Below are positions 1 to 15,143 of a DNA stretch of 64,000 bases, one piece after another. The stretch is from assembly GCF_056746865.1 (NCBI RefSeq), contig NZ_CM163382.1, one strand, 5' to 3'. Under the pieces are notes generated by a model that searched no databases, was not told the origin of the DNA, and saw only the letters and a program-made list of their open reading frames with translations. A program made the position numbers and the translations under genes. The first letter of the stretch is position 1, and each line of letters opens with the position of its first letter.

Positions 1-1846
1 CTCTATAGATCCTTTTAATATCGACCATATTGAAGTGATCTCCGGTGCGACGTCCCTGTATGGCGGCGGCAGTACCGGTGGCCTGATCAACATCGTGAGC
101 AAAAAAGGCCAGCCGGAAACCATGAAGGAGTTTGAGGCTGGCACCAAAAGTGGCTTTAGCAGCAGTAAAGATCACGATGAACGCATTGCCGGAGCTGTCT
201 CCGGCGGAAATGAGCATATCTCCGGACGTCTTTCCGTGGCATATCAGAAATTTGGCGGCTGGTTTGACGGTAACGGCGATGCCACCCTGCTTGATAACAC
301 CCAGACCGGCCTGCAGTACTCCGATCGGCTGGACATCATGGGAACTGGAACGTTGAACATCGATGAATCCCGGCAGCTTCAGTTGATCACACAGTACTAT
401 AAAAGCCAGGGCGACGACGATTACGGGCTTAATCTCGGGAAAGGCTTCTCTGCCATCAGAGGGACCAGCACGCCCTTCGTCAGTAACGGGCTGAATTCCG
501 ACCGTATTCCCGGCACTGAGCGGCATTTGATCAGCCTGCAGTACTCTGACAGCGCTTTCCTGGGACAGGAGCTGGTCGGTCAGGTTTACTACCGCGATGA
601 GTCGTTGCGATTCTACCCGTTCCCGACGGTAAATGCGAACAAACAGGTGACGGCTTTCTCTTCGTCACAGCAGGACACCGACCAGTACGGCATGAAACTG
701 ACTCTGAACAGCAAACCGATGGACGGCTGGCAAATCACCTGGGGGCTGGATGCTGATCATGAGCGCTTTACCTCCAACCAGATGTTCTTCGACCTGGCTC
801 AGGCAAGCGCTTCCGGAGGGCTGAACAACAAGAAGATTTACACCACCGGGCGCTATCCGTCGTATGACATCACCAACCTGGCGGTCTTCCTGCAATCAGG
901 CTATGACATCAATAATCTCTTTACCCTCAACGGTGGCGTACGCTATCAGTACACTGAAAACAAGATTGATGATTTCATCGGCTACGCGCAGCAACGGCAG
1001 ATTGCCGCCGGGAAGGCTATATCCGCCGACGCCATTCCTGGCGGCTCAGTCGATTACGACAACTTCCTGTTCAACGCTGGTCTGCTGATGCATATCACCG
1101 AACGCCAGCAGGCATGGCTCAACTTCTCCCAGGGCGTGGAGCTGCCGGACCCGGGTAAATACTATGGTCGCGGCATCTATGGTGCTGCAGTGAACGGCCA
1201 TCTTCCTCTAACAAAGAGTGTGAACGTCAGCGACAGCAAGCTGGAAGGCGTGAAAGTCGATTCTTATGAGCTGGGCTGGCGCTTTACTGGCAATAATCTG
1301 CGCACCCAAATCGCGGCCTACTATTCGATTTCTGATAAGAGCGTGGTGGCGAATAAAGATCTGACCATCAGTGTGGTGGACGACAAACGCCGTATTTACG
1401 GCGTGGAAGGTGCGGTGGACTACCTGATTCCTGATACTGACTGGAGTACCGGAGTGAACTTCAACGTGCTGAAAACTGAGTCGAAAGTGAACGGTACCTG
1501 GCAGAAATACGATGTGAAGACAGCAAGCCCATCAAAAGCGACAGCCTACATTGGCTGGGCACCGGACCCGTGGAGTCTGCGAGTGCAGAGCACCACCTCC
1601 TTTGACGTGAGCGACGCGCAGGGCTACAAGGTCGATGGCTATACCATCGTCGATTTGCTTGGCAGTTATCAGCTTCCGGTGGGTACACTCAGCTTCAGCA
1701 TTGAAAACCTCTTCGACCGTGACTACACCACTGTCTGGGGGCAGCGTGCGCCACTGTACTACAGCCCGGGTTACGGCCCTGCTTCACTGTACGGCTACAA
1801 AGGCAGGGGCCGCACCTTTGGTCTGAGTTACTCAGTATTATTCTGA
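1..1846 (+). CDS. iutA: TonB-dependent ferric aerobactin receptor, 5' end outside window
   Basis: Long ORF open from window start to stop at 1846; outer-membrane beta-barrel C-terminus ending in aromatic residue (GLSYSVLF); sequence recalled as IutA; sits next to sit operon as in aerobactin islands/ColV-type regions. Confidence 0.7.
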   Translation, partial: SIDPFNIDHIEVISGATSLYGGGSTGGLINIVSKKGQPETMKEFEAGTKSGFSSSKDHDERIAGAVSGGNEHISGRLSVAYQKFGGWFDGNGDATLLDNTQTGLQYSDRLDIMGTGTLNIDESRQLQLITQYYKSQGDDDYGLNLGKGFSAIRGTSTPFVSNGLNSDRIPGTERHLISLQYSDSAFLGQELVGQVYYRDESLRFYPFPTVNANKQVTAFSSSQQDTDQYGMKLTLNSKPMDGWQITWGLDADHERFTSNQMFFDLAQASASGGLNNKKIYTTGRYPSYDITNLAVFLQSGYDINNLFTLNGGVRYQYTENKIDDFIGYAQQRQIAAGKAISADAIPGGSVDYDNFLFNAGLLMHITERQQAWLNFSQGVELPDPGKYYGRGIYGAAVNGHLPLTKSVNVSDSKLEGVKVDSYELGWRFTGNNLRTQIAAYYSISDKSVVANKDLTISVVDDKRRIYGVEGAVDYLIPDTDWSTGVNFNVLKTESKVNGTWQKYDVKTASPSKATAYIGWAPDPWSLRVQSTTSFDVSDAQGYKVDGYTIVDLLGSYQLPVGTLSFSIENLFDRDYTTVWGQRAPLYYSPGYGPASLYGYKGRGRTFGLSYSVLF

Positions 1847-1910
1847 CAGGAATTCTTTGGAAACAAAGGTATGTTGATATAAGGGCCTTCCCTGATCATG
1901 GTGGGAAGGC

Positions 1911-3145
1911 TCAAAACGCCATATTCAGTTTCCCGTAGTGGAACATCACGCCCAGCTTAAAGCGTTCCCGATTGCGGTATCCCCTGGCTTTTATCCTCAG
2001 CAGCCTGAGCTTACTGTTAAGCGCCTCCGCGTTTCCGTTTGAGACACGGTGTCGCATGGCATTCAGGATCCCATACAGCCTTTTTCCTATCGTTTTCGTG
2101 GCGTTTTTCATCATAGTAATGTCACTGTTGGCCGCCAGAGCCAGCAATCTCTCCCACTCATTACGTCTTTCCTCACTTCATGGCCTGTTCCAGATATTCT
2201 TTGCCAGCTCTTTCAGCGCCCAGCACAGGCTTGTCAGCTTCATCTGTGCACGCAGCCATATCAGCTTTTCCTGCCTGGATTCGGTCATCCATTTATCGTT
2301 GTACTGCCACAGGAAGCGGGTCCCCTTTGCCTGACGCCGACTTTCAACAGGGAGGTGTGGATGTTCATCCTGACGGATTTTATCAACTACTTCACCAAGT
2401 TGCTTTGCTACATGGAAGCGGTCGAAGGCGATTTTCTCAACCGCACAGGGTAAGTGGATACGCGCTGCTCTTATACAGCCTGCATTCATGTCCATTGAGA
2501 GCGTTTTGATAGCCAGCAACTGCCCGTCAGTAAGCGTGCGAAGATAGCCGGCGAGGCTCTCTGTGCCACGATCGTCCGTTAAGGCCAGTGCACGACCATC
2601 GCGATCGGAGATCACAGTTATATAACAATGTCCTTTTTTAAAGGCGACCTCATCCACATTCATATGACGGGCGGATAATGGCTTTTTTATCCGGGCAAGA
2701 CCTCGCTTAACTGCCCGGGTCATAATGCCGTCAACCGCATTCCAGCTGAGCTTAAGTTGTTTCCTTACAGCATCAACAGTGCTGATTTTCAGCCATGAGA
2801 GAACGAGTCGAACAGCAGCGTATACCGCCTTCCGGGGCCAGCCCAGGGAACTAGCAACGTCTGGCAGCCATGCTCCGGGCACATAATGCGGGGCACATCG
2901 GCTTCGACAATAGTGGTGAACTGGCAGATATCAAGATGACGCCATTTACGATGACGGTGATCGTGAACAGAACAGGATTTACCGCAGGTCGGACAGGCTA
3001 ACCGGGCATTTTTAGCGATTCCAACTGTGACGGTAACAGAACCGGCGTTTTCATCGAGAGAAAGATATTTAACCTGCCATGGAGCGGTCAGGTTGATAAT
3101 ATGAGCGTAGAGGGACCTTTCGTCCATGGCGGTGACCTTTGGCAA
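1911..3145 (-). pseudogene. ISL3-family transposase, disrupted by two frameshifts
   Basis: Three consecutive minus-strand ORF pieces (2789-3145 zinc-finger N-term with CPTCG; 2178-2882 DDE core with NVDEVAFKKGH; 1911-2147 C-term with GYRNRERF) that together make one ISL3-like transposase. Confidence 0.5.
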
Positions 3146-3430
3146 TTAAAACACCATCATCATGCCTTCAGCCACCATAACAAGGGAAAACCCTGATATA
3201 CGGCCTTAAAAAGATATTCCGTCTCCGGAACGGACTGCTCACCACTGAATAACATTATGCCTGTTTTATGTATCTTTGACTGAAATTTATCGCATATCCT
3301 CATTTCATTGCCCGTATGAAAAGGTAAGCGAAAACCTACTGCCGTAGTAGCCATTGAGTAGTATTGGTAACATAGGTGCCAACATTTCAACTGATCTGCG
3401 CTAAGATCTTGGGTATTCTATGAAAAATGT

Positions 3431-3741
3431 GGTAGTGCTTCCAATCAGTAGAACATGTTCTTTTCAATGACGGAACCGATGACTTTTTCGTTGATTTTCA
3501 CGGAACGCGAGAAGCAGATTGTTTTACGTGCCAGCCGCTTGATGCGGGTGCGGAGGGGCAGGTTGTTAAGTTCAATAGGTTGCGTGAATATTTTACCGGT
3601 CAGGTATTTCTCCTTCGTCACTTCTCTGACGTTGCAGCCCCTGTCATTGCTGGTCACTATGCCGATATAGAACGAAGTCAACAGGGCTAACAGTTCCCGA
3701 CAGGTCTCATCATTCCGTGGCCCGAAAGAATAAGCCAACAC
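3431..3741 (-). pseudogene. IS1-family element right end with divergent InsB-like C-terminal fragment
   Basis: ORF 3445-3741 C-terminus parallels IS1 InsB (RLARKTICFSRSVKINEKVIGSVIE vs [26 protein letters not shown]); terminal sequence ggtagtgcttccaatcagtag at 3431 resembles the IS1 inverted repeat; 5' part absent. Confidence 0.45.
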
Positions 3742-4083
3742 ACCGCAGTTTTAGTGTTGTAAGCAGACCAGTGTTGTTGCGCCTTGCTGCCAACGAAATT
3801 TAACTGCTCATCAAGTTTCAAAGATAAGGGCAACATCAGCGTGAACGACTGGCGTAGATGTTATCCGCCGGGGCGAAAACATTTTTAATGTCCGTATGAC
3901 GGTATTGATGCCGATTTTCAGTGTTCATGGGTATCACGGACACCTGCGCCGTTATGTGCCATTTCAACGATCTGCTCCTTAACGCCGGGTTTCCTGACTT
4001 CACCAAGAGTAAGTGAGCTGGAAAACATGTTTTACATGAGCGACAACGGAAACGCTCATCTCGGGAACGTGTTCTTAACGGTT

Positions 4084-4170
4084 AGACTGGCCCCCCTGAA
4101 TCACCTGCAGTTGAAGGACAGTAACAGGTTAAGTGATAACAGATGTCTGGAAATATAGAGGTAAATCCAA
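4084..4170. mobile_element. Miniature IS2 remnant: IS2 left and right terminal repeats with almost all internal sequence deleted
   Basis: tagactggcccccctgaatcacc matches IS2 left end; gttaagtgataacagatgtctggaaatatagaggtaaatcca matches IS2 right end; only about 20 bp between them. Confidence 0.55.
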
Positions 4171-4435
4171 GGAAGTGCCACTTTTCATCCGTTGTTGACA
4201 ATACAGCAAAACTTGATGCTATTCGTACGCCCACAATGGAATGTGGATTCAAACTGAATATTCCGTTTGTTGATATGAGTGATTTGGGCAACGGTGGCAA
4301 CAAATAACTTTATACAGGAGCTGACGGTGTTTTCCTGATCATGCCGCCCATATTTTCTTCGGAGGTCGGGGACTTTCAATACCTTCCCCCGACACTCTAT
4401 GACTTCACAAGATTGTCTCCATGACTGCTATGTGC

Positions 4436-5314
4436 CTACAGATGTTGCTCTCTGGTTGTTGTACTAGTCGGGAGATCCTGTGGATCGACATTTTCCTTCG
4501 CGTGAGCATTGATGCTGGAAGCGGTAAACGTCAGGATGAATACAACCGTGAATAAGATAACAATCGTTGGTGCTGGTGCGCTGTCTATAAAAAAGGAGAG
4601 CCATACACCAGTCATTGAGACCATTACCGATATACCGAGCGCCAGCAGGAGCGCAATATGAAAGCGTTGCGTCAGGAGTACCGCAATGGCGCCAGGCGCA
4701 ATGAGCAGAGAAATGGAGAGAATGATACCTACCGCTTTCAGCGTCGCCACAATGGTCAGAGAGACCATGCACAGCAGCCCATAATGCAGCCATCTCGTAT
4801 GCAAACCGCTTACCTGCGCCTGTTGATAATCAAAGCTGAACAGCAAAAAATCCCGCCATTTTACGCTAATAACAAGTGTAACCAGCCCGGCAATAATCAC
4901 CGTCTGGATTATATCGCCGATGGTTACCCCGAGCATGTCGCCGAAAAGAATATGGTCAAGATGTACGTCGGGTTTGACTGCAATATACAAGATCAGACCT
5001 GCGGCAAACATGCCAGAAAAAACAATCCCCATCACTGTATCTTGCTTGATTCGGCTGTTGTCTTTCAGGTATCCCGTCGCCACCGCGCAGAATACTCCGG
5101 CGACGAATGCTCCTCCCGCCAGAGGAAAACCCAGTATCCACGCAAGCACGATACCAGGAAAAACCGCATGACTCATCGCGTCTCCCATCAGTGCCCAACC
5201 TTTCAGGACCAGAAAGACCGACAGCAGCGCACAGGGTATGGAAACTACCAGTGAAATCAGCAGTGCGTGACTCATAAAGGTGAACTGCAGTGGCTCCAGT
5301 AATAATGCCATCAT
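4436..5314 (-). CDS. sitD: Iron/manganese ABC transporter permease SitD
   Basis: 292-aa polytopic membrane protein; last gene of four-gene operon with overlapping stop/start codons. Confidence 0.85.
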   Translation of the reverse strand: MMALLLEPLQFTFMSHALLISLVVSIPCALLSVFLVLKGWALMGDAMSHAVFPGIVLAWILGFPLAGGAFVAGVFCAVATGYLKDNSRIKQDTVMGIVFSGMFAAGLILYIAVKPDVHLDHILFGDMLGVTIGDIIQTVIIAGLVTLVISVKWRDFLLFSFDYQQAQVSGLHTRWLHYGLLCMVSLTIVATLKAVGIILSISLLIAPGAIAVLLTQRFHIALLLALGISVMVSMTGVWLSFFIDSAPAPTIVILFTVVFILTFTASSINAHAKENVDPQDLPTSTTTREQHL

Positions 5315-8140: not shown

Positions 8141-9287
8141 ATGAAGGGTAAAATTGTCTGCTGTGGAGCCTCTCAGATTTCCGGCATCATAGTGCCCAAT
8201 ACGGGATGCAAAAGCGCCCTCAGACTGGCGACTCCACAAATGAAATATACACCGGTTGGCGTTGATATCGCAAAGTATCTGATTCAGGTTCACTTCATCA
8301 ATGAGTACACGGGCGAAGTGGTGGACAAGCAGCTACGTAGCAAGGATTTTCTGACGTTCTTCAGCAACCGGGAACCCTGTCTGATAGGTATGGAGGCTTG
8401 TGGAGGCTCCCAACATTGGGCGAGGGAACTGGAAAAAACTGGGACACAAAGTTCGGCTGTTGCAAGCTCGCTTCGTTAAAGCATTCGTCATGGGCAACAA
8501 AAATGATGTGATGGATGCGCGTGCTATCTGGATGGCGGTACAGCAGCCCAGTAAAGATATCGCTGTTAAAACGGAAGAGAAGCAGTCAGTTCTGGTCCTG
8601 CACCGTTCGCGCAGACAACTGGTGAAGTTCAGAACCTCGCATATTAATACCCTTGGCACGCTCCTCGAGTTTGGTGAAATCCTCCACAAAGATTGGACAG
8701 CGATGGACAGAAAGCTACCGACAGCCCTAGAGCGAATGAAGACGAACCTGCCGCCGTATCTCATCACTGTGCTTGAATACCAGTACAACAGACTGAGTGA
8801 GCTGGGCATGCAGATAGATGGCCTTGATAAACAGATTAACAGCGTGGCACGGCAGAGCGAAAACTGTAAGCGCCTAATGGAAATCCCCGGTGTGGGGCCG
8901 TTAATCGCTACGGCGGTGGTCGCCACCATGGGCGAGGCCTCAGCATTTAAATCCGGACGTGAGTTTGACGCTTATGTCTGTCTGGTGCCGAAGCAGACGG
9001 GGTCCGCTGGGAAGGTTCGCATGCTGGGGATAAGCAAACGTGGGGATACCTACCACCGGACATTATTTATCCATGGGGCAAGGGCGGCAGCATTGCTTAC
9101 CAAAGAACCCGGCCCATGGATCACGGAGCTGAAAAAACGGCAGCCGACAGGTGTAATGCCGATCAGTTTAGGAGCAGTTGACCGATCCAGGGTCTGTTTA
9201 AGAATCCTGAAACGCTCACTCGTTTCCGGATTTTTGTGCACAGAAAAACCCCAGCTAGGCTGGGGGCCGGAAAGCTTTCAGCTTTGA
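8141..9287 (+). pseudogene. IS110-family transposase, frameshifted
   Basis: ORFs 8141-8479 and 8400-9287 overlap in different frames; N-terminal GVDIAK/MEACG and C-terminal IPGVGP/GISKRG motifs. Confidence 0.6.
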
Positions 9288-9325
9288 GCCAGTTATTAAA
9301 ACCCCTTTTGATTTGTTAAAACACC

Positions 9326-9616
9326 TTGCGGTCTGGCAACTGCAAGTGTCAAACAAGAAATCAAAAGGGGGTCCCAATGGGGAACGAAAAGAGCTTAGCG
9401 CATACCCGATGGAACTGTAAATATCACATAGTTTTTGCGCCAAAATACCGAAGAAAAGTGTTCTACAGAGAGAAGCGTAAAGCAACAGGCAGTATTTTGA
9501 GAAAGCTGTGTGAGTGGAAAAGTGTACGGATTCTTGAAGCTGAGTGCTGTGCAGATCATATCCATATGCTTGTGGAGATCCCGCCCAAAATGAGCGTATC
9601 CGGCTTTATGGGATAG
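9326..9616 (+). pseudogene. IS200-family TnpA, 3'-truncated
   Basis: MGNEKSLAHTRWNCKYHIVFAPKYRR...HIHMLVEIPPKMSVSGFMG matches IS200 TnpA; left-end hairpin cccttttgatttgtt/aacaagaaatcaaaaggggg upstream; ORF cut short at 9616. Confidence 0.65.
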
Positions 9617-10347
9617 ACGGCATTAATCGCTTCCGGGAAGCCTTTCAGGCCGTCCACGAAGGCGATAAGGATATCGTTCAGGCCGCGATTTTTCAGTTCC
9701 GTCAGTACATTCAGCCAGAACTTTGCACCTTCATTTTCGGCCAGCCACATATCCAGCAGCTCTTTCTGACCGTCGGTATTGATGCCCAGCGCGAGGAACA
9801 CCGCTTTGTTAATGACACTCCCGCTGTGACGAACCTTAACCACAATACAGTCAAGATAAACAATGGGATACAGTGCATCCAACGGTCGGTTTTGCCATTC
9901 AGAGACCTGTTCTTTAACCGCATCGGTCACTTTGGATATCAGCGTGGGCGAGACATCGGCGTCGTACATTTCTTTGAAGGCTGAGGTAATTTCGCGGGTA
10001 GTCATCCCTCTGGCATACAGCGCCAGGATCTGGTTGTCCATGCCGGTAATGCGGGTCTGATTTTTCTTCACCAGTTGTGGTTCGAAGGAACCATCACGAT
10101 CAGGTGGAGTACGTAATTCCATCGGCCCGTCGGTAGTGGTGACGGTTTTCGTGGAATAGCCATTACGGAAGTTGGTTCCCGATTTGGTCTGATTTTTTTC
10201 ATGTCCCAGATGGTGAGTCAGTTCAGCGTTGAGAGCTGCCTCAACACTTATTTTCTTGAGCAGGCGATCGAACTGACTGAGATCTTCAGGGGTTTTGAGA
10301 TTTTTGGCCAGTTCGTTAGCCAGAGCCTGCAATTGTGTGTCGTCCAT
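9556..10347 (-). pseudogene. IS256-family transposase, C-terminally truncated
   Basis: 263-aa ORF with IS256-like N-terminus (LNAELTHHLGHEKNQ, VYLDCIVVKVR); abuts the truncated IS200 piece. Confidence 0.6.
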
Positions 10348-11267
10348 AATTTAGCTTTCATTTGATGTTGAATTGAACAGATCAAAATCAGGCAATTACA
10401 TAAATCTATGTACAGGCTCAATGCCGGCGCTGGTATTGTAGAAATCAATCCTGCCCCTGATGTCGGAGATACTCTCGTTAACCTTCCTGATTGTATCCTC
10501 TGCTCAGTCAATGGGTTGCCAATGGGGGCACCCTTTCCTGACTGATTCGTCATTTCATTCTTATTGTATGTTACTGGCATTACACCAGTGCTGGCATACT
10601 TTCCTGCGTGTCTGCACCGGTTTGACAAAATTCAACAGGGATAAAATAGTGCAGGAAACTGAAGCATTACTTGCAGAGCCGGGAGACATCCGGCGTTTTA
10701 TTCAACAGGCAGTGGATCACTGGCCGCATTTTCTGATTGTCCACTTCACACACAATTCGACAGAAGGAAACATCAACGGACAACAGATTCATGCATTCTG
10801 AACTTCCTTTTATGAACGTATTACTGAACGTAATCACACTGACAGTCCATCCTCGCCGGTGGTATTACGCTGGTTGCGTGAACAACATGAAGGAACAACA
10901 ATACCTGTTGCTGCTCAGCCATGTGGTGGCATGCAGCGGCACTTTAAGCAGCACAGGGCACTTTGAACTGCTCCGGGAATCCTGGAGACTAAACTCCCTG
11001 AGAAAGAGGTAAACAGGATGAGTATGATTCACAATTGGGGTAATTTGTTCCATTGCCTCAAATGCTGGCTGTACGCCACAGACTCTGCGTGTCTGGGTTA
11101 GCCAGTATGAGCGGGATACAGGGGCGCTTCACACATAACATTCCTTCTAATTTGCATAATTAATTACACTGATAGTCACATTCAATAACTATCATAAGCT
11201 ATCATCTGGCTGACTGTTATTTCGCAACAGTTATTGAGTAAATCTTTAACCTGTTAACAGAGGGTTT

Positions 11268-11792
11268 ATGAAACGTAAACTTATTGCCTTTGTGATTCTG
11301 GCTACATCATCCTGTGGATATGCAGCCACCAAAGATGTAACAATGAATCTTGTTGATAGTGACGGAAAAGAGCGAAATATTGGTAAAATAACCATCCAGA
11401 AGACACCCTACGGGCTGCTGTTCACCCCTGATCTTCACTCCTTACCCGCCGGCATTCATGGTTTTCATGTACATGAAAACGCAAGTTGTGCTCCTGCCCT
11501 GAAAGATGGAAAAACTGTCGCTGCTTTATCTGCAGGTGGTCACTTTGACCCGGAAAAAACAGGGAAGCATCTCGGTCCATGGTCTCCTGATGGCCACCTA
11601 GGTGATCTCCCTGCGCTTTATGTCACTCATGACGGAAAAGCAACCTACCCGGTGCTTGCGCCAAGACTATCTGAATTAAAGGAGCTCGATGGCCGTTCGC
11701 TAATGCTCCACGCAGGAGGTGATAATCATGATGACCATCCTGAACCTCTAGGTGGCGGTGGTGCAAGAATTGCCTGTGGTATCATCCCATAA
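11268..11792 (+). CDS. sodC: Periplasmic Cu/Zn superoxide dismutase, acquired paralogue
   Basis: 174 aa with signal peptide, copper-site histidines (HGFHVHE, GGHFDPE) and C-terminal [12 protein letters not shown]; diverged from chromosomal SodC as recalled. Confidence 0.8.
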
Positions 11793-11799
11793 TCAATCA

Positions 11800-11822
11800 G
11801 GTAAGGGATATCCTCCCTTACC
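11800..11822. terminator. Hairpin between convergent genes, possible bidirectional terminator
   Basis: ggtaagggatatcctcccttacc inverted repeat directly after the sodC stop. Confidence 0.3.
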
Positions 11823-11920
11823 CTTAATCTTCCCTGGCGGCATGTGCATATCTTTCAGTTACTGTGAGATACCTGTATTACGGTGTCTTTTTAGCTCACA
11901 GAAATATCAGACAGCCCGTT

Positions 11921-12145
11921 TCAGTGTTTTATTACCTTAATCTTTTTACGGCATTCTTCAGCTCTTGCGCATGCTATTTTTTCACCTGTTTCATAACATT
12001 GCTGGCAGCCTAATCCAAATTTCATCGCCATATCATAACCTTCCCGAAAACCTCGGAACCACGCGTTACGAAGGTATTCATCATATTCCCCGTAGTCAAT
12101 AATAACCATTTTATTTTCATGGGATTTTCCGGTATTCTCACTCAT
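11921..12145 (-). CDS. Small cysteine-containing hypothetical protein
   Basis: ORF track gives 119 aa; internal start MSENTGK is preceded by a GAGG ribosome-binding site; convergent with sodC. Confidence 0.3.
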   Translation of the reverse strand: MSENTGKSHENKMVIIDYGEYDEYLRNAWFRGFREGYDMAMKFGLGCQQCYETGEKIACARAEECRKKIKVIKH

Positions 12146-12959
12146 TTTCGATACCTCAATGCTTACAACAGAAAAGTATACTTTTACGAAGTTCGCCTTT
12201 GCAGGACTATATAAAGTTATCACTGGATGCAAGAGCCGGAAATCATGTATATCAGGATCAACTTTGTAATTCAATAACATATTATCCAGTGAAAAAGTAA
12301 GTATATTTAAGCTGGGGAAGGAGAAGGGGGACTTAATTTGATATTTTCATCAATAATATTATTTTACCTCCTCCATTATTCATTCAGGCCTGGTTCCGGG
12401 CGTAATTCCGATTTCTCTGTTGAAGCGATGCATTTATATTTAAATATTCACCTGTCATTGAATTTTATTTGAAATAGGAGAAAATCTCCTCCTGTACTAC
12501 AGATAACCCGGAATGTTCCTCGAAAGAAAATTCTGGCGCAGAATTCACGCCCGGTTCTGTTCAACATCATGCAGGATAACGATACCGAAACGTTAAACTC
12601 TGGCAATTCTCGTGTTATACACAGGCAGGAGTGATTACTACGGTAAGAATTGCTGAAAAGGGGAGAACACTGAAGGCCTTATTCGCGAAGAATAAAGGAG
12701 ACATTTCATGTAAATTATTATCAGAGATAACCTTCTCCAGGCGCTTTTGTTCGCTTCCTGAATTGCTACCTGATACATATTTACGGGATGCCAGCCTGGT
12801 GACTATAACTCCGAAAAGACCGATTATTGTATTGCGTGCATCCGGCATGTTTACAATGTACGCTGGTATCTAACGGAGTCTGACACAGATGCACGCAGGT
12901 GTATATTTTAACGTAATTATCCGGAAGGAACAGTATATTTTAATGCGGGAGTTGCATGA

Positions 12960-13777
<818 letters not shown>

Positions 13778-14116
13778 TAATTACACTGTGGGTTGACGCC
13801 GGAAGAATCAGAGAACAGATACCGTTCTTACTGTAAAACGTGGCTAATATTAATTGAGCACTGCAGTGTTCAGAGCACAAAGAAGAAAAAAGATGTGTGC
13901 GAATGCCTGTAATGTGTTAAAAGAATGTTCCGCGTTTCCGGTACGCTTTTCGTAACTAACAATGCAGGGTGACGTAACGCTGGTTGTGCCGGAAACGCGT
14001 CCCTCCCCCTATCTTTCCTGTTTGGATTTGCCCCTATATTTCTGGATTATCCGACAAAACCGGCGTGAAGTATTACTCTCGTCGCCCAGCACCATAAGGA
14101 TAACGCCCATAAAATC

Positions 14117-14482
14117 ATGAAACTTTTCTTCCAGATTGGATACAATCAGGCCGTATCCCGTATTACAGGCTTATCACGTGTGACAGTCAGTCTCTGGGTG
14201 TGTTCAGGAACATTCCCTGAAATGTCAACCCGGCCTCCAGAGCGAGGACTTCTGGCCCCATGGAGGGAGTGGTTAAAAGAGCAACGAGAAAGTGGTAACT
14301 TCGGCGCGTGGCTGCAAGGATGGCAGCTGATGCTGCGGCTATATGTGAGGCAATCGGCAGTCGCTGGAATAATGGGGGTTGTCGAAAGTCATGTAAATAG
14401 ACTAAAAATGCTGAAAGGCCAGATGTATGGTCGAGCCGGATTTGAACTACTCAGACAGAGGGTCATGAGTCCACTGGCATGA
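14117..14482 (+). CDS. Hypothetical protein with possible AlpA-like helix-turn-helix
   Basis: 121-aa ORF containing ITGLSRVTVSLW...FPE; weak resemblance only. Confidence 0.2.
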   Translation: MKLFFQIGYNQAVSRITGLSRVTVSLWVCSGTFPEMSTRPPERGLLAPWREWLKEQRESGNFGAWLQGWQLMLRLYVRQSAVAGIMGVVESHVNRLKMLKGQMYGRAGFELLRQRVMSPLA

Positions 14483-14690
14483 AAATCTCCATCCAGGTTG
14501 CGTAAGAGCCACTTTTCATCCGTCGTCGATATCTGGGATAGCCATAGTGAAATAAAAAGCTGTCTGAATTAAATTATTTTGCACATATATTTTAATCCTG
14601 CACTGAATTAAGAATGGGTAATCAGTGACTGCTTGGACGGTCACTTTTAAGAGAAGGCATTAACAGAGAATGGTAAACAGGCTCAATATA

Positions 14691-15143
14691 TTATGTTGTT
14701 GGCACTACAGATGAATGATGGGATGATATTTTCCAATCCTTTCCATCCCACTCATAAGCGAAACTATAGCGTGCTGAAACTTGTTTTTTATCTTCAAAAG
14801 TAAACGTGTAATTCCCTGTATCAAGAGCCATATTGCATCCAATGCGAATAGTTCTGAAGTTTATTTCTCCAACAGGTTTTTTTTTCAAAAAATGCTCAAA
14901 ATAGTCAACTCTTTCTGCATCTGTAATCCTAATTTTTTTTGATACTGTGGGCAGTAAGATCGCATCACTTAAATAGTTATCAGCAACCTTCTTGGCATCA
15001 CCTGTTTTTAATGATTCATTCCAGCGATCGAATAACCTTTCAATGTCTTTACTATCTACCCGAATACACTTAACATTATCTACGTCACTTGCCCACGACG
15101 CTCCAGAAAACAGACACAGAATTAAAATATTTATTTTTTTCAT
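14691..15143 (-). CDS. Secreted hypothetical protein, possibly NTF2/SnoaL-like fold
   Basis: 150 aa with clear signal peptide (MKKINILILCLFSGASWA); AT-rich codon usage; fold guess from size and composition only. Confidence 0.45.
   Translation of the reverse strand: MKKINILILCLFSGASWASDVDNVKCIRVDSKDIERLFDRWNESLKTGDAKKVADNYLSDAILLPTVSKKIRITDAERVDYFEHFLKKKPVGEINFRTIRIGCNMALDTGNYTFTFEDKKQVSARYSFAYEWDGKDWKISSHHSSVVPTT

Follow-up and report, generated by a model that had tools for sequence, protein, structure and literature searches.

An acquired sodC in an Escherichia coli iron-uptake island and the conserved orphan gene for a small cysteine-containing protein beside it

Introduction

Does a small open reading frame (ORF) next to an acquired superoxide dismutase gene encode a protein that serves the enzyme, or has it merely travelled along with it? 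The question is raised by a locus in a stretch of 64,000 nucleotides from contig NZ_CM163382.1 (NCBI RefSeq assembly GCF_056746865.1), hereafter called the window, in which sodC, a gene for a periplasmic Cu,Zn superoxide dismutase (SOD), faces an ORF for a protein of 74 amino acids. Extra phage-type SodC enzymes help Salmonella and enterohaemorrhagic E. coli survive the phagocyte oxidative burst, and the phage-associated SodC clade of E. coli O157 and Salmonella comprises dimeric, more stable enzymes that contribute to virulence. An extra phage-type sodC in a pathogen is known already, and the sodC of the present locus (the island sodC) is annotated in RefSeq. The new element is its partner, a conserved orphan gene with invariant cysteines whose only known habitat is beside this sodC.

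If the small protein were a copper-supply or redox-signalling accessory, a cytoplasmic component would be added to what was supposed to be a one-gene periplasmic defence; if it were not an accessory, it would be one more mobile-element ORFan. The locus would be unsurprising to specialists unless the small protein serves SodC. A preliminary description, made from the window sequence alone, had presented an acquired, prophage-type sodC convergent with a small cysteine-containing ORF, the two sharing a hairpin. The best explanation found here for the locus as a whole, with a probability of about 0.5, is a mobile sodC moron accompanied by a separately transcribed accessory gene for a thiol- or metal-centre protein.

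A mobile module of two genes

The window is E. coli DNA, and the segment from 11000 to 12700 was present with 100% identity in the E. coli chromosomes of many human and poultry isolates. The same convergent pair was found on a Klebsiella pneumoniae contig, with an iron ABC transporter of the FecCD type next to it. The E. coli and Klebsiella versions were 85% identical in nucleotide sequence across 1.18 kb and had unrelated flanks, and the segment delimited by this homology (Table 1) was shown by comparison to be a horizontally mobile two-gene module. Apart from the sodC upstream region (Table 1), nucleotide identity was 88.6% in sodC, 75.8% in the spacer, 85.8% in the small ORF and 79.4% upstream of the small ORF. 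Synonymous divergence (dS) between the two species was 0.46 for sodC and 0.43 for the small gene, and these equal values indicate that the two genes diverged as one unit.

The small ORF as a gene

The small ORF had been described as convergent with sodC, as containing cysteines and as preceded by a good ribosome-binding site, and all of this was confirmed. The cysteines of its product are arranged as Cys47-x2-Cys50-x8-Cys59-x5-Cys65. The ORF was intact in Klebsiella, and the E. coli and Klebsiella proteins shared 81% amino acid identity. The ratio of nonsynonymous to synonymous divergence (dN/dS, omega) in this comparison was 0.24 for the small gene (0.14 for residues 27-74) and 0.09 for sodC, and the other five frames of the small-ORF region were closed or had an omega near 1. 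In a neutral simulation, 31 random substitutions gave 14 or fewer amino acid changes in 0.02% of cases (P = 0.0002).

An exhaustive HMMER search recovered a homologue of 75 amino acids with 55-57% amino acid identity in two enterobacterial metagenome assemblies, L007 and L008. Between L007 and E. coli the synonymous sites of the small gene were saturated; the proportion of differing sites was 0.91 for synonymous (pS) and 0.25 for nonsynonymous positions (pN), and none of 20,000 neutral simulations reached so few amino acid changes (P < 5e-5). The small ORF was free of indels and stops across the three lineages, unlike the spacer, which was 76% identical and contained indels. Conservation of the ORF had been set beforehand as the test on which the original proposal could fail, and the ORF was kept in both other diverged lineages carrying it. 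Judged from its pattern of substitution, the small ORF is a genuine, selectively maintained gene.

The Shine-Dalgarno sequence was kept as GAGG in Klebsiella and as AAGG in L007, and parts of the leader could be recognised in all three lineages. The hexamers and spacing of a candidate sigma-70 promoter were also preserved in Klebsiella (TATAAA) and L007 (TAGAAA); a consensus promoter scan had missed this candidate because its -10 hexamer ends in A. The end coordinate of the locus given in the preliminary description, 12280, is the start of an extended ORF of 119 amino acids. It did not hold, as the Klebsiella copy is frameshifted there by a 1-nt indel, and the extended ORF was rejected.

Table 1. 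Coordinates of the features of the sodC module in the window
Feature	Position	Strand	Basis or remark
Whole two-gene module	11132..12311	.	Limits of E. coli/Klebsiella homology (blastn, alignment)
Conserved sodC upstream (promoter/regulatory) region	11132..11267	+	86% identical to Klebsiella
sodC, periplasmic Cu,Zn superoxide dismutase precursor, 174 amino acids	11268..11792	+	RefSeq WP_000823671.1
sodC 3' stem-loop, perfect hairpin, GGTAAGGGA TATCC TCCCTTACC	11800..11822	.	9-bp stem, 5-nt loop
Second inverted repeat, imperfect	11859..11904	+	Inner 8-bp stem (about 11866-11889), then T run
Orphan gene, presumably cytoplasmic protein of 74 amino acids	11921..12145	-	ORF; coding sequence of the Prokaryotic Genome Annotation Pipeline (PGAP); WP_001470144.1 (RefSeq hypothetical protein)
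Shine-Dalgarno sequence, GAGG	12154..12157	-	8 nt upstream of ATG
Perfect 14-bp palindrome, AAAAGTATACTTTT	12172..12185	.	Small-gene leader, between candidate promoter and ribosome-binding site
Candidate sigma-70 promoter, TTGAAT-N17-TATACA	12246..12274	-	Read from sequence

Homologues were sought with HMMER over 1.84e9 representatives, in 5.8e9 clusters searched twice (by profile and by word), in 100,044 species genomes, and also in IMG/VR, phage and plasmid collections and JGI metagenomes (DNA-pattern scan). Beyond the E. coli copies, all collections gave just the Klebsiella and the L007/L008 lineages, so that by homology the family is restricted to three lineages in the collections searched. 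No family could be named in the preliminary description, and the profile searches were likewise empty: the 74-amino-acid protein had no match in Pfam, NCBIfam, PHROGs or PADLOC at thresholds of E <= 1 to E <= 10, and PDB sequences gave no match to the small-protein profile at E <= 10. A sub-threshold similarity to Pfam DUF7574 (15.1 bits against a cut-off of 27, E = 0.023) was limited to residues 19-60 of the metagenome homologue (P0008). A literature search found no mention of the island sodC, WP_001470144.1 or DUF7574.

Linkage of the small gene to sodC

In every known lineage the small gene had a mobile-clade sodC no more than 0.8 kb away, and no copy was seen away from a sodC of this clade in the collections searched. 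Apparent cases of the small gene without sodC (L004 and L026) lay at contig ends or IS (insertion sequence) junctions and were rejected as evidence of separation. Among 5426 complete E. coli genomes the island sodC was found in 125, including SMS-3-5 and APEC O2-211, and the small gene in 124 (122 at a coverage of at least 80%); in one E. coli sub-lineage an insertion sequence lies in the last four codons of the small gene.

In E. coli and Klebsiella the two genes converge, whereas in L007 they are divergent; each has a conserved upstream region of its own. A type II toxin-antitoxin system or a two-gene operon with sodC was rejected because the genes are not co-oriented. In L007, sodC stands between two copies of an insertion-sequence end (5-32 and 1225-1252), together with a transposase fragment. 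At 1485-4864 lie the small gene, 465 nt after it a katG for 723 amino acids, and then a glutaredoxin-like ORF of 83 amino acids. A functional link to katG was judged weak, as the katG is an ordinary enterobacterial one (about 75% nucleotide identity) and IS remnants surround the sodC/small-gene insert.

A neighbour-joining tree of SodC (no bootstrap) placed L007 outside the group formed by the island, Klebsiella, phage and plasmid copies. This topology suggests an old pairing from which phages and plasmids later took sodC alone.

The predicted small protein

The small protein (8.7 kDa, pI about 7.7) is hydrophilic, with a grand average of hydropathicity of -0.8, and has no signal peptide, so that it is presumably cytoplasmic. 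Structure prediction, which had been proposed as a check, gave a disordered N-terminus followed by two amphipathic helices (residues 23-42 and 47-71) at modest confidence, and the same two helices appeared in all five models of a linked dimer. The invariant core of the family reads AW[FY]RGFREGY-x-MA-xx-FGL-x-CQQC[YF]ETGEK-x-A-x-ARA-xx-C. Cys47, Cys50 and Cys65 are invariant and lie on the i/i+3/i+4 hydrophobic (core) face of predicted helix 2, with the CxxC at the N-terminus of this helix. Cys59 lies off the hydrophobic face and is replaced by Tyr in L007. These features make it probable that the product of the small gene is a two-helix protein of the cytoplasm that carries a thiol or metal centre.

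The remaining cysteines varied. Codon 18 (12092-12094) is polymorphic in E. coli, with Tyr18 in the window and Cys18 in the large Logan clusters P0001 and P0002, and in the L007 homologue there is a Cys at position 14 (Cys14) whereas Cys59 is missing. Apart from the three invariant ones, the cysteines are thus variable in number.

Known cysteine motifs include Hx3Cx2C in zinc-binding anti-sigma (ZAS) proteins, two CxxC pairs in DksA/TraR, and four cysteines in WhiB (Cx2Cx5C) and SoxR (Cx2CxCx5C). A ZAS motif was rejected because Phe stands at -4 from Cys47, and a C4 zinc finger of the TraR/DksA type because there is one CxxC only. A WhiB/SoxR-type Fe-S sensor was rejected in view of the Cx2Cx8Cx5C spacing, the Tyr at the position of Cys59 in L007 and the lack of a profile match. 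By analogy, the small protein resembles Cox17-type CHCH copper chaperones, Csp copper-storage bundles, Bfd and the WhiB/SoxR-type sensors in being small, in its all-helical prediction and in carrying cysteines on a helix packing face. The company of its gene (a copper enzyme, metal-uptake genes, katG) may likewise be compared with that of metal- and redox-centre proteins. It differs from these proteins in its cysteine spacing: Cx2Cx8Cx5C, in which the third Cys varies, corresponds to none of their motifs, and no sequence or fold match was obtained.

A possible accessory role and its alternatives

Exported SodC would convert host-derived superoxide in the periplasm to H2O2 and O2. The small protein would be an accessory factor acting in the cytoplasm, in the same setting of oxidative or copper stress. 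Its task might be to sense or to buffer the load of peroxide or copper that goes with SodC activity, or else to pass copper on for export. The centre could take the form of a redox-active disulfide or of a site for Cu(I), Zn or an Fe-S cluster, and two monomers would probably pack into a four-helix bundle to form it. As the gene keeps the company of a copper enzyme and of metal-uptake genes or katG, a redox or copper accessory role is the most economical guess. The probability of a functional coupling between the small protein and SodC is estimated at about one third to one half, that of any particular mechanism being much lower.

A number of observations weigh against an accessory role. An IS remnant separates the two genes in L007 and their relative orientation differs there, and with three independent lineages only, the linkage could be inherited proximity and not functional coupling. 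The small gene was absent in tblastn searches beside sodC copies at 82% (P1-like plasmids), 80% (prophages), 76%, 68% and 66% identity, and on IncF plasmids of E. albertii and E. coli that encode an identical SodC its first ~44 codons have been removed by an insertion sequence. The lack of conservation at Cys59 rules out a site with four cysteines from a single monomer. The confidence of the model was modest (predicted local distance difference test score of 57-68 from an alignment of four sequences), and fold searches returned generic helical hairpins only. Without a signal peptide the small protein cannot touch periplasmic SodC directly, so that any link to SodC must be indirect, through copper routing, peroxide sensing or regulation. 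The check on co-occurrence of the pair that the preliminary description had proposed came out in one direction only. Judged by these gene contents, dependence is one-sided. A sodC is near wherever the small gene occurs, but most sodC lineages of the clade are without the small gene. The enzyme gene does not need the small gene, which is probably not required for SodC catalysis.

The strongest alternative, rated as quite possible, is that the small gene is real and a passenger from the donor genome or a mobile element, with a function unrelated to superoxide or metals, for example that of a small regulator, an H-NS or RNA polymerase modulator or an anti-defence protein. It would stand beside sodC because the two genes, 130 bp apart, were excised together. 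The many sodC lineages without the small gene and the truncation tolerated by the plasmid copies favour a passenger, as do the separate, convergent transcription predicted without an operon and the tiny, taxonomically narrow family, which is typical of mobile-element ORFans. Set against this, the adjacency has outlasted divergence to saturated synonymous sites as well as IS rearrangement of gene order and orientation, no copy was seen away from sodC, and the next neighbours are metal-uptake genes in two of the three lineages and katG in the third.

An extension of the accessory role, regarded as unlikely, is that the 74-amino-acid protein founds a new family of cytoplasmic, cysteine-centred helical bundles functionally dedicated to acquired periplasmic Cu,Zn-SODs. 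Such a protein could bind Cu(I) and direct it to the export ATPase for SodC metallation, or it could be a thiol switch signalling the H2O2 that SodC produces. If this were true, the module would amount to an oxidative-burst defence cassette working in two compartments and not to a lone enzyme gene.

More doubtful still is a dimeric DNA-binding autoregulator, for example of a ribbon-helix-helix-like type with a hydrophobic MVII strand followed by two helices. Such a protein would bind the leader palindrome AAAAGTATACTTTT and perhaps the inverted repeats upstream of sodC, and its cysteines would make the control of sodC redox-sensitive. The palindrome, for which 0.16 matches per window are expected, is flanked by the candidate promoter and the ribosome-binding site. 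It is unchanged in Klebsiella though the DNA around it is only 79% identical, and the core AGTRTAYT can still be made out in the L007 leader. It is a possible operator, and the inverted repeats in the conserved sodC upstream region and the short hydrophobic stretch before two predicted helices would also suit an autoregulator. However, no DNA-binding family was matched, the N-terminal 20 residues are predicted to be disordered and are the least conserved part of the protein (omega of 0.46), and helix 1 exceeds the ribbon-helix-helix length. The palindrome does not recur upstream of sodC, and phage copies without the small gene share the same sodC promoter region.

An untranslated small ORF, either a conserved RNA element (a long 3' untranslated region of sodC or an antisense RNA) or a chance ORF, is highly improbable: the convergent layout would make sodC read-through antisense to the small ORF and the spacer holds two structured hairpins, but the substitutions are protein-like by omega and in both simulations, the ORF is free of indels and stops in three lineages while the spacer has indels, the start codon and ribosome-binding site are conserved, no Rfam family was matched and PGAP calls the ORF a coding sequence.

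The SodC enzyme

The island SodC is intact as judged from its residues. It matched Pfam Sod_Cu (PF00080) with 111 bits (6e-32; cut-off 28.9) and the NCBIfam equivalog NF007628 with 218 bits over residues 1-173 of 174 (cut-off 165), and it scored best with PHROG_1975, 'superoxide dismutase precursor' (299 bits). The Cu and Zn ligands and the disulfide cysteines are complete (H67, H69, H92, H101, H110, D113, H148, C74 and C170). They are invariant in comparison with the phage, plasmid and metagenome copies and align with those of 1ESO and SodCI.

Divergence from the chromosomal enzyme, as stated in the preliminary description, was confirmed: the island SodC is 57% identical to chromosomal E. coli SodC, the sequence of which was verified against PDB 1ESO. 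The two have the fold and metal ligands in common and pass the same NCBIfam equivalog cut-off. With SodC from Stx2a-converting phages and lambdoid prophages the island SodC shared 79-80% identity, with the Gifsy-2 and Fels-1 enzymes about 60%, and the closest solved structure was Salmonella SodCI (6d52/1eqw, 221 bits). In the neighbour-joining tree (no bootstrap) the island copy grouped with the phage clade. By this relationship the island sodC is a horizontally acquired paralogue of the phage-associated (moron-type) SodC clade. The earlier label of an acquired prophage-type paralogue is right as to the clade and wrong as to the location, as the locus is an IS-shattered iron-uptake island. A prophage location was ruled out by this aerobactin/sit context; around the locus there were no phage structural genes, and the neighbours are IS fragments, sitABCD, iuc/iutA, iha and remnants of integrative and conjugative elements (ICE).

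The N-terminus of the island SodC is Sec-signal-like and aligns with the leader of O157 SodC-F1, so that the protein looks like one exported to the periplasm by the predicted Sec route. Its Cys16 (11313-11315), in the motif TSSC, is aligned with the lipobox Cys (AASC) of O157 SodC-F1 and SodC-F2, which are partly lipid-anchored via the leader cysteine (PMC2569942); lipidation of the island enzyme via Cys16 is uncertain on this alignment. The O157 phage SodC enzymes form dimers, have a higher stability and are expressed in log phase and under anaerobic conditions, while chromosomal E. coli SodC is monomeric and expressed in stationary phase (PMC2569942). By analogy, the island SodC may have the same properties as the O157 phage enzymes.

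The island sodC shares with sodC-F1 and sodC-F2 of O157:H7 and with the Stx2a-phage sodC about 80% protein identity, the upstream region, a 3' hairpin of the same position and sequence type, a stand-alone arrangement of promoter region, gene and putative terminator, and a signal peptide with Cys at the lipobox position (PMC2569942). It differs from them in lying in an aerobactin/sit/iha island or on IncF plasmids and not between phage tail genes, and in being accompanied by the orphan gene, which the phage copies lack. Salmonella SodCI (Gifsy-2) and SodCIII (Fels-1) are, like the island enzyme, horizontally acquired extra periplasmic Cu,Zn-SODs of a pathogen, but they belong to different mobile elements, and these phages have no small-gene partner.

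Upstream region and 3' hairpin of sodC

About 135 nt upstream of sodC could be aligned among the island, Klebsiella, Stx2a-phage, P1-like-plasmid and metagenome (L007) copies. This region contains inverted repeats at 11170-11176/11188-11194 and 11184-11194/11211-11221. The idea of a Fur box there was dropped, as no match to the 19-bp consensus with three or fewer mismatches occurred anywhere in the window.

The hairpin 3' to sodC lies 8 nt past the sodC stop and 98 nt from the small-ORF stop. A perfect hairpin of at least 9 bp occurred in 66 of 2000 dinucleotide shuffles of 11100-12400 (3%), and the stem was predicted at -14 to -16 kcal/mol. Its tails, CTTAATCTTC on the + strand and GATTGATTAT on the - strand, are just moderately T-rich, and a terminator scan flagged both strands. 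The hairpin was found at the same site in the Klebsiella, plasmid and Stx2a-phage copies, with two compensatory pairs and pairing intact in all; a Salmonella plasmid copy of sodC has an unrelated 9-bp hairpin at the same spot. The preliminary description was correct in calling the hairpin perfect and in placing it between both genes. It is not shared by the pair: phage and plasmid copies of sodC without the small gene are also followed by it, with compensatory changes in the stem, and by this comparison it is sodC's own 3' element. It would act as a terminator or stabiliser for sodC and may incidentally also stop the small-gene transcript. As the upstream region and the hairpin are common to the phage and plasmid copies, sodC appears to travel as a moron consisting of promoter, gene and terminator.

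The second inverted repeat may be a back-up terminator for sodC read-through; Klebsiella keeps it in part only. No RNA family of Rfam was matched in 10800-12800.

Genomic context

In extraintestinal and avian pathogenic E. coli, this portable sodC unit has reached iron-uptake islands and IncF plasmids, an occurrence that appears to be undescribed in the searchable literature. With carriers amounting to ~2% of complete E. coli genomes, the island sodC matters for virulence-gene inventories. On IncF plasmids sodC adjoins rep, psi and toxin-antitoxin genes. In strain SCU-115 the module is surrounded by iucABCD-iutA, sitABCD, many degraded insertion sequences, a group II intron and ibrAB-like genes. 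In strain EC6563 (L038, 1-2720) it adjoins dptFG on one side and an SgcJ/EcaC oxidoreductase gene, ICE remnants and iha on the other, so that in some strains dptF/dptG (phosphorothioation-dependent restriction) and not the sit operon directly adjoins the sodC module. On the Klebsiella contig (L002), an ORF of 71 amino acids at 1401-1616, between the FecCD permease gene and sodC, has no E. coli counterpart.

The GC content falls to 37-45% over the module, and no tRNA genes were found in the window. Transposase fragments of the IS110, IS200/IS605, IS256 and IS3 families are dense on both sides of the module, at 8400-10350 and 12900-14500. The gene order of the window departs from that of SCU-115 beyond 13725, which indicates IS-mediated reshuffling of the island between strains. 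A protein of 150 amino acids with a signal peptide, an SgcJ/EcaC family oxidoreductase according to RefSeq, is encoded at 14691-15143 on the - strand, isolated amid IS fragments.

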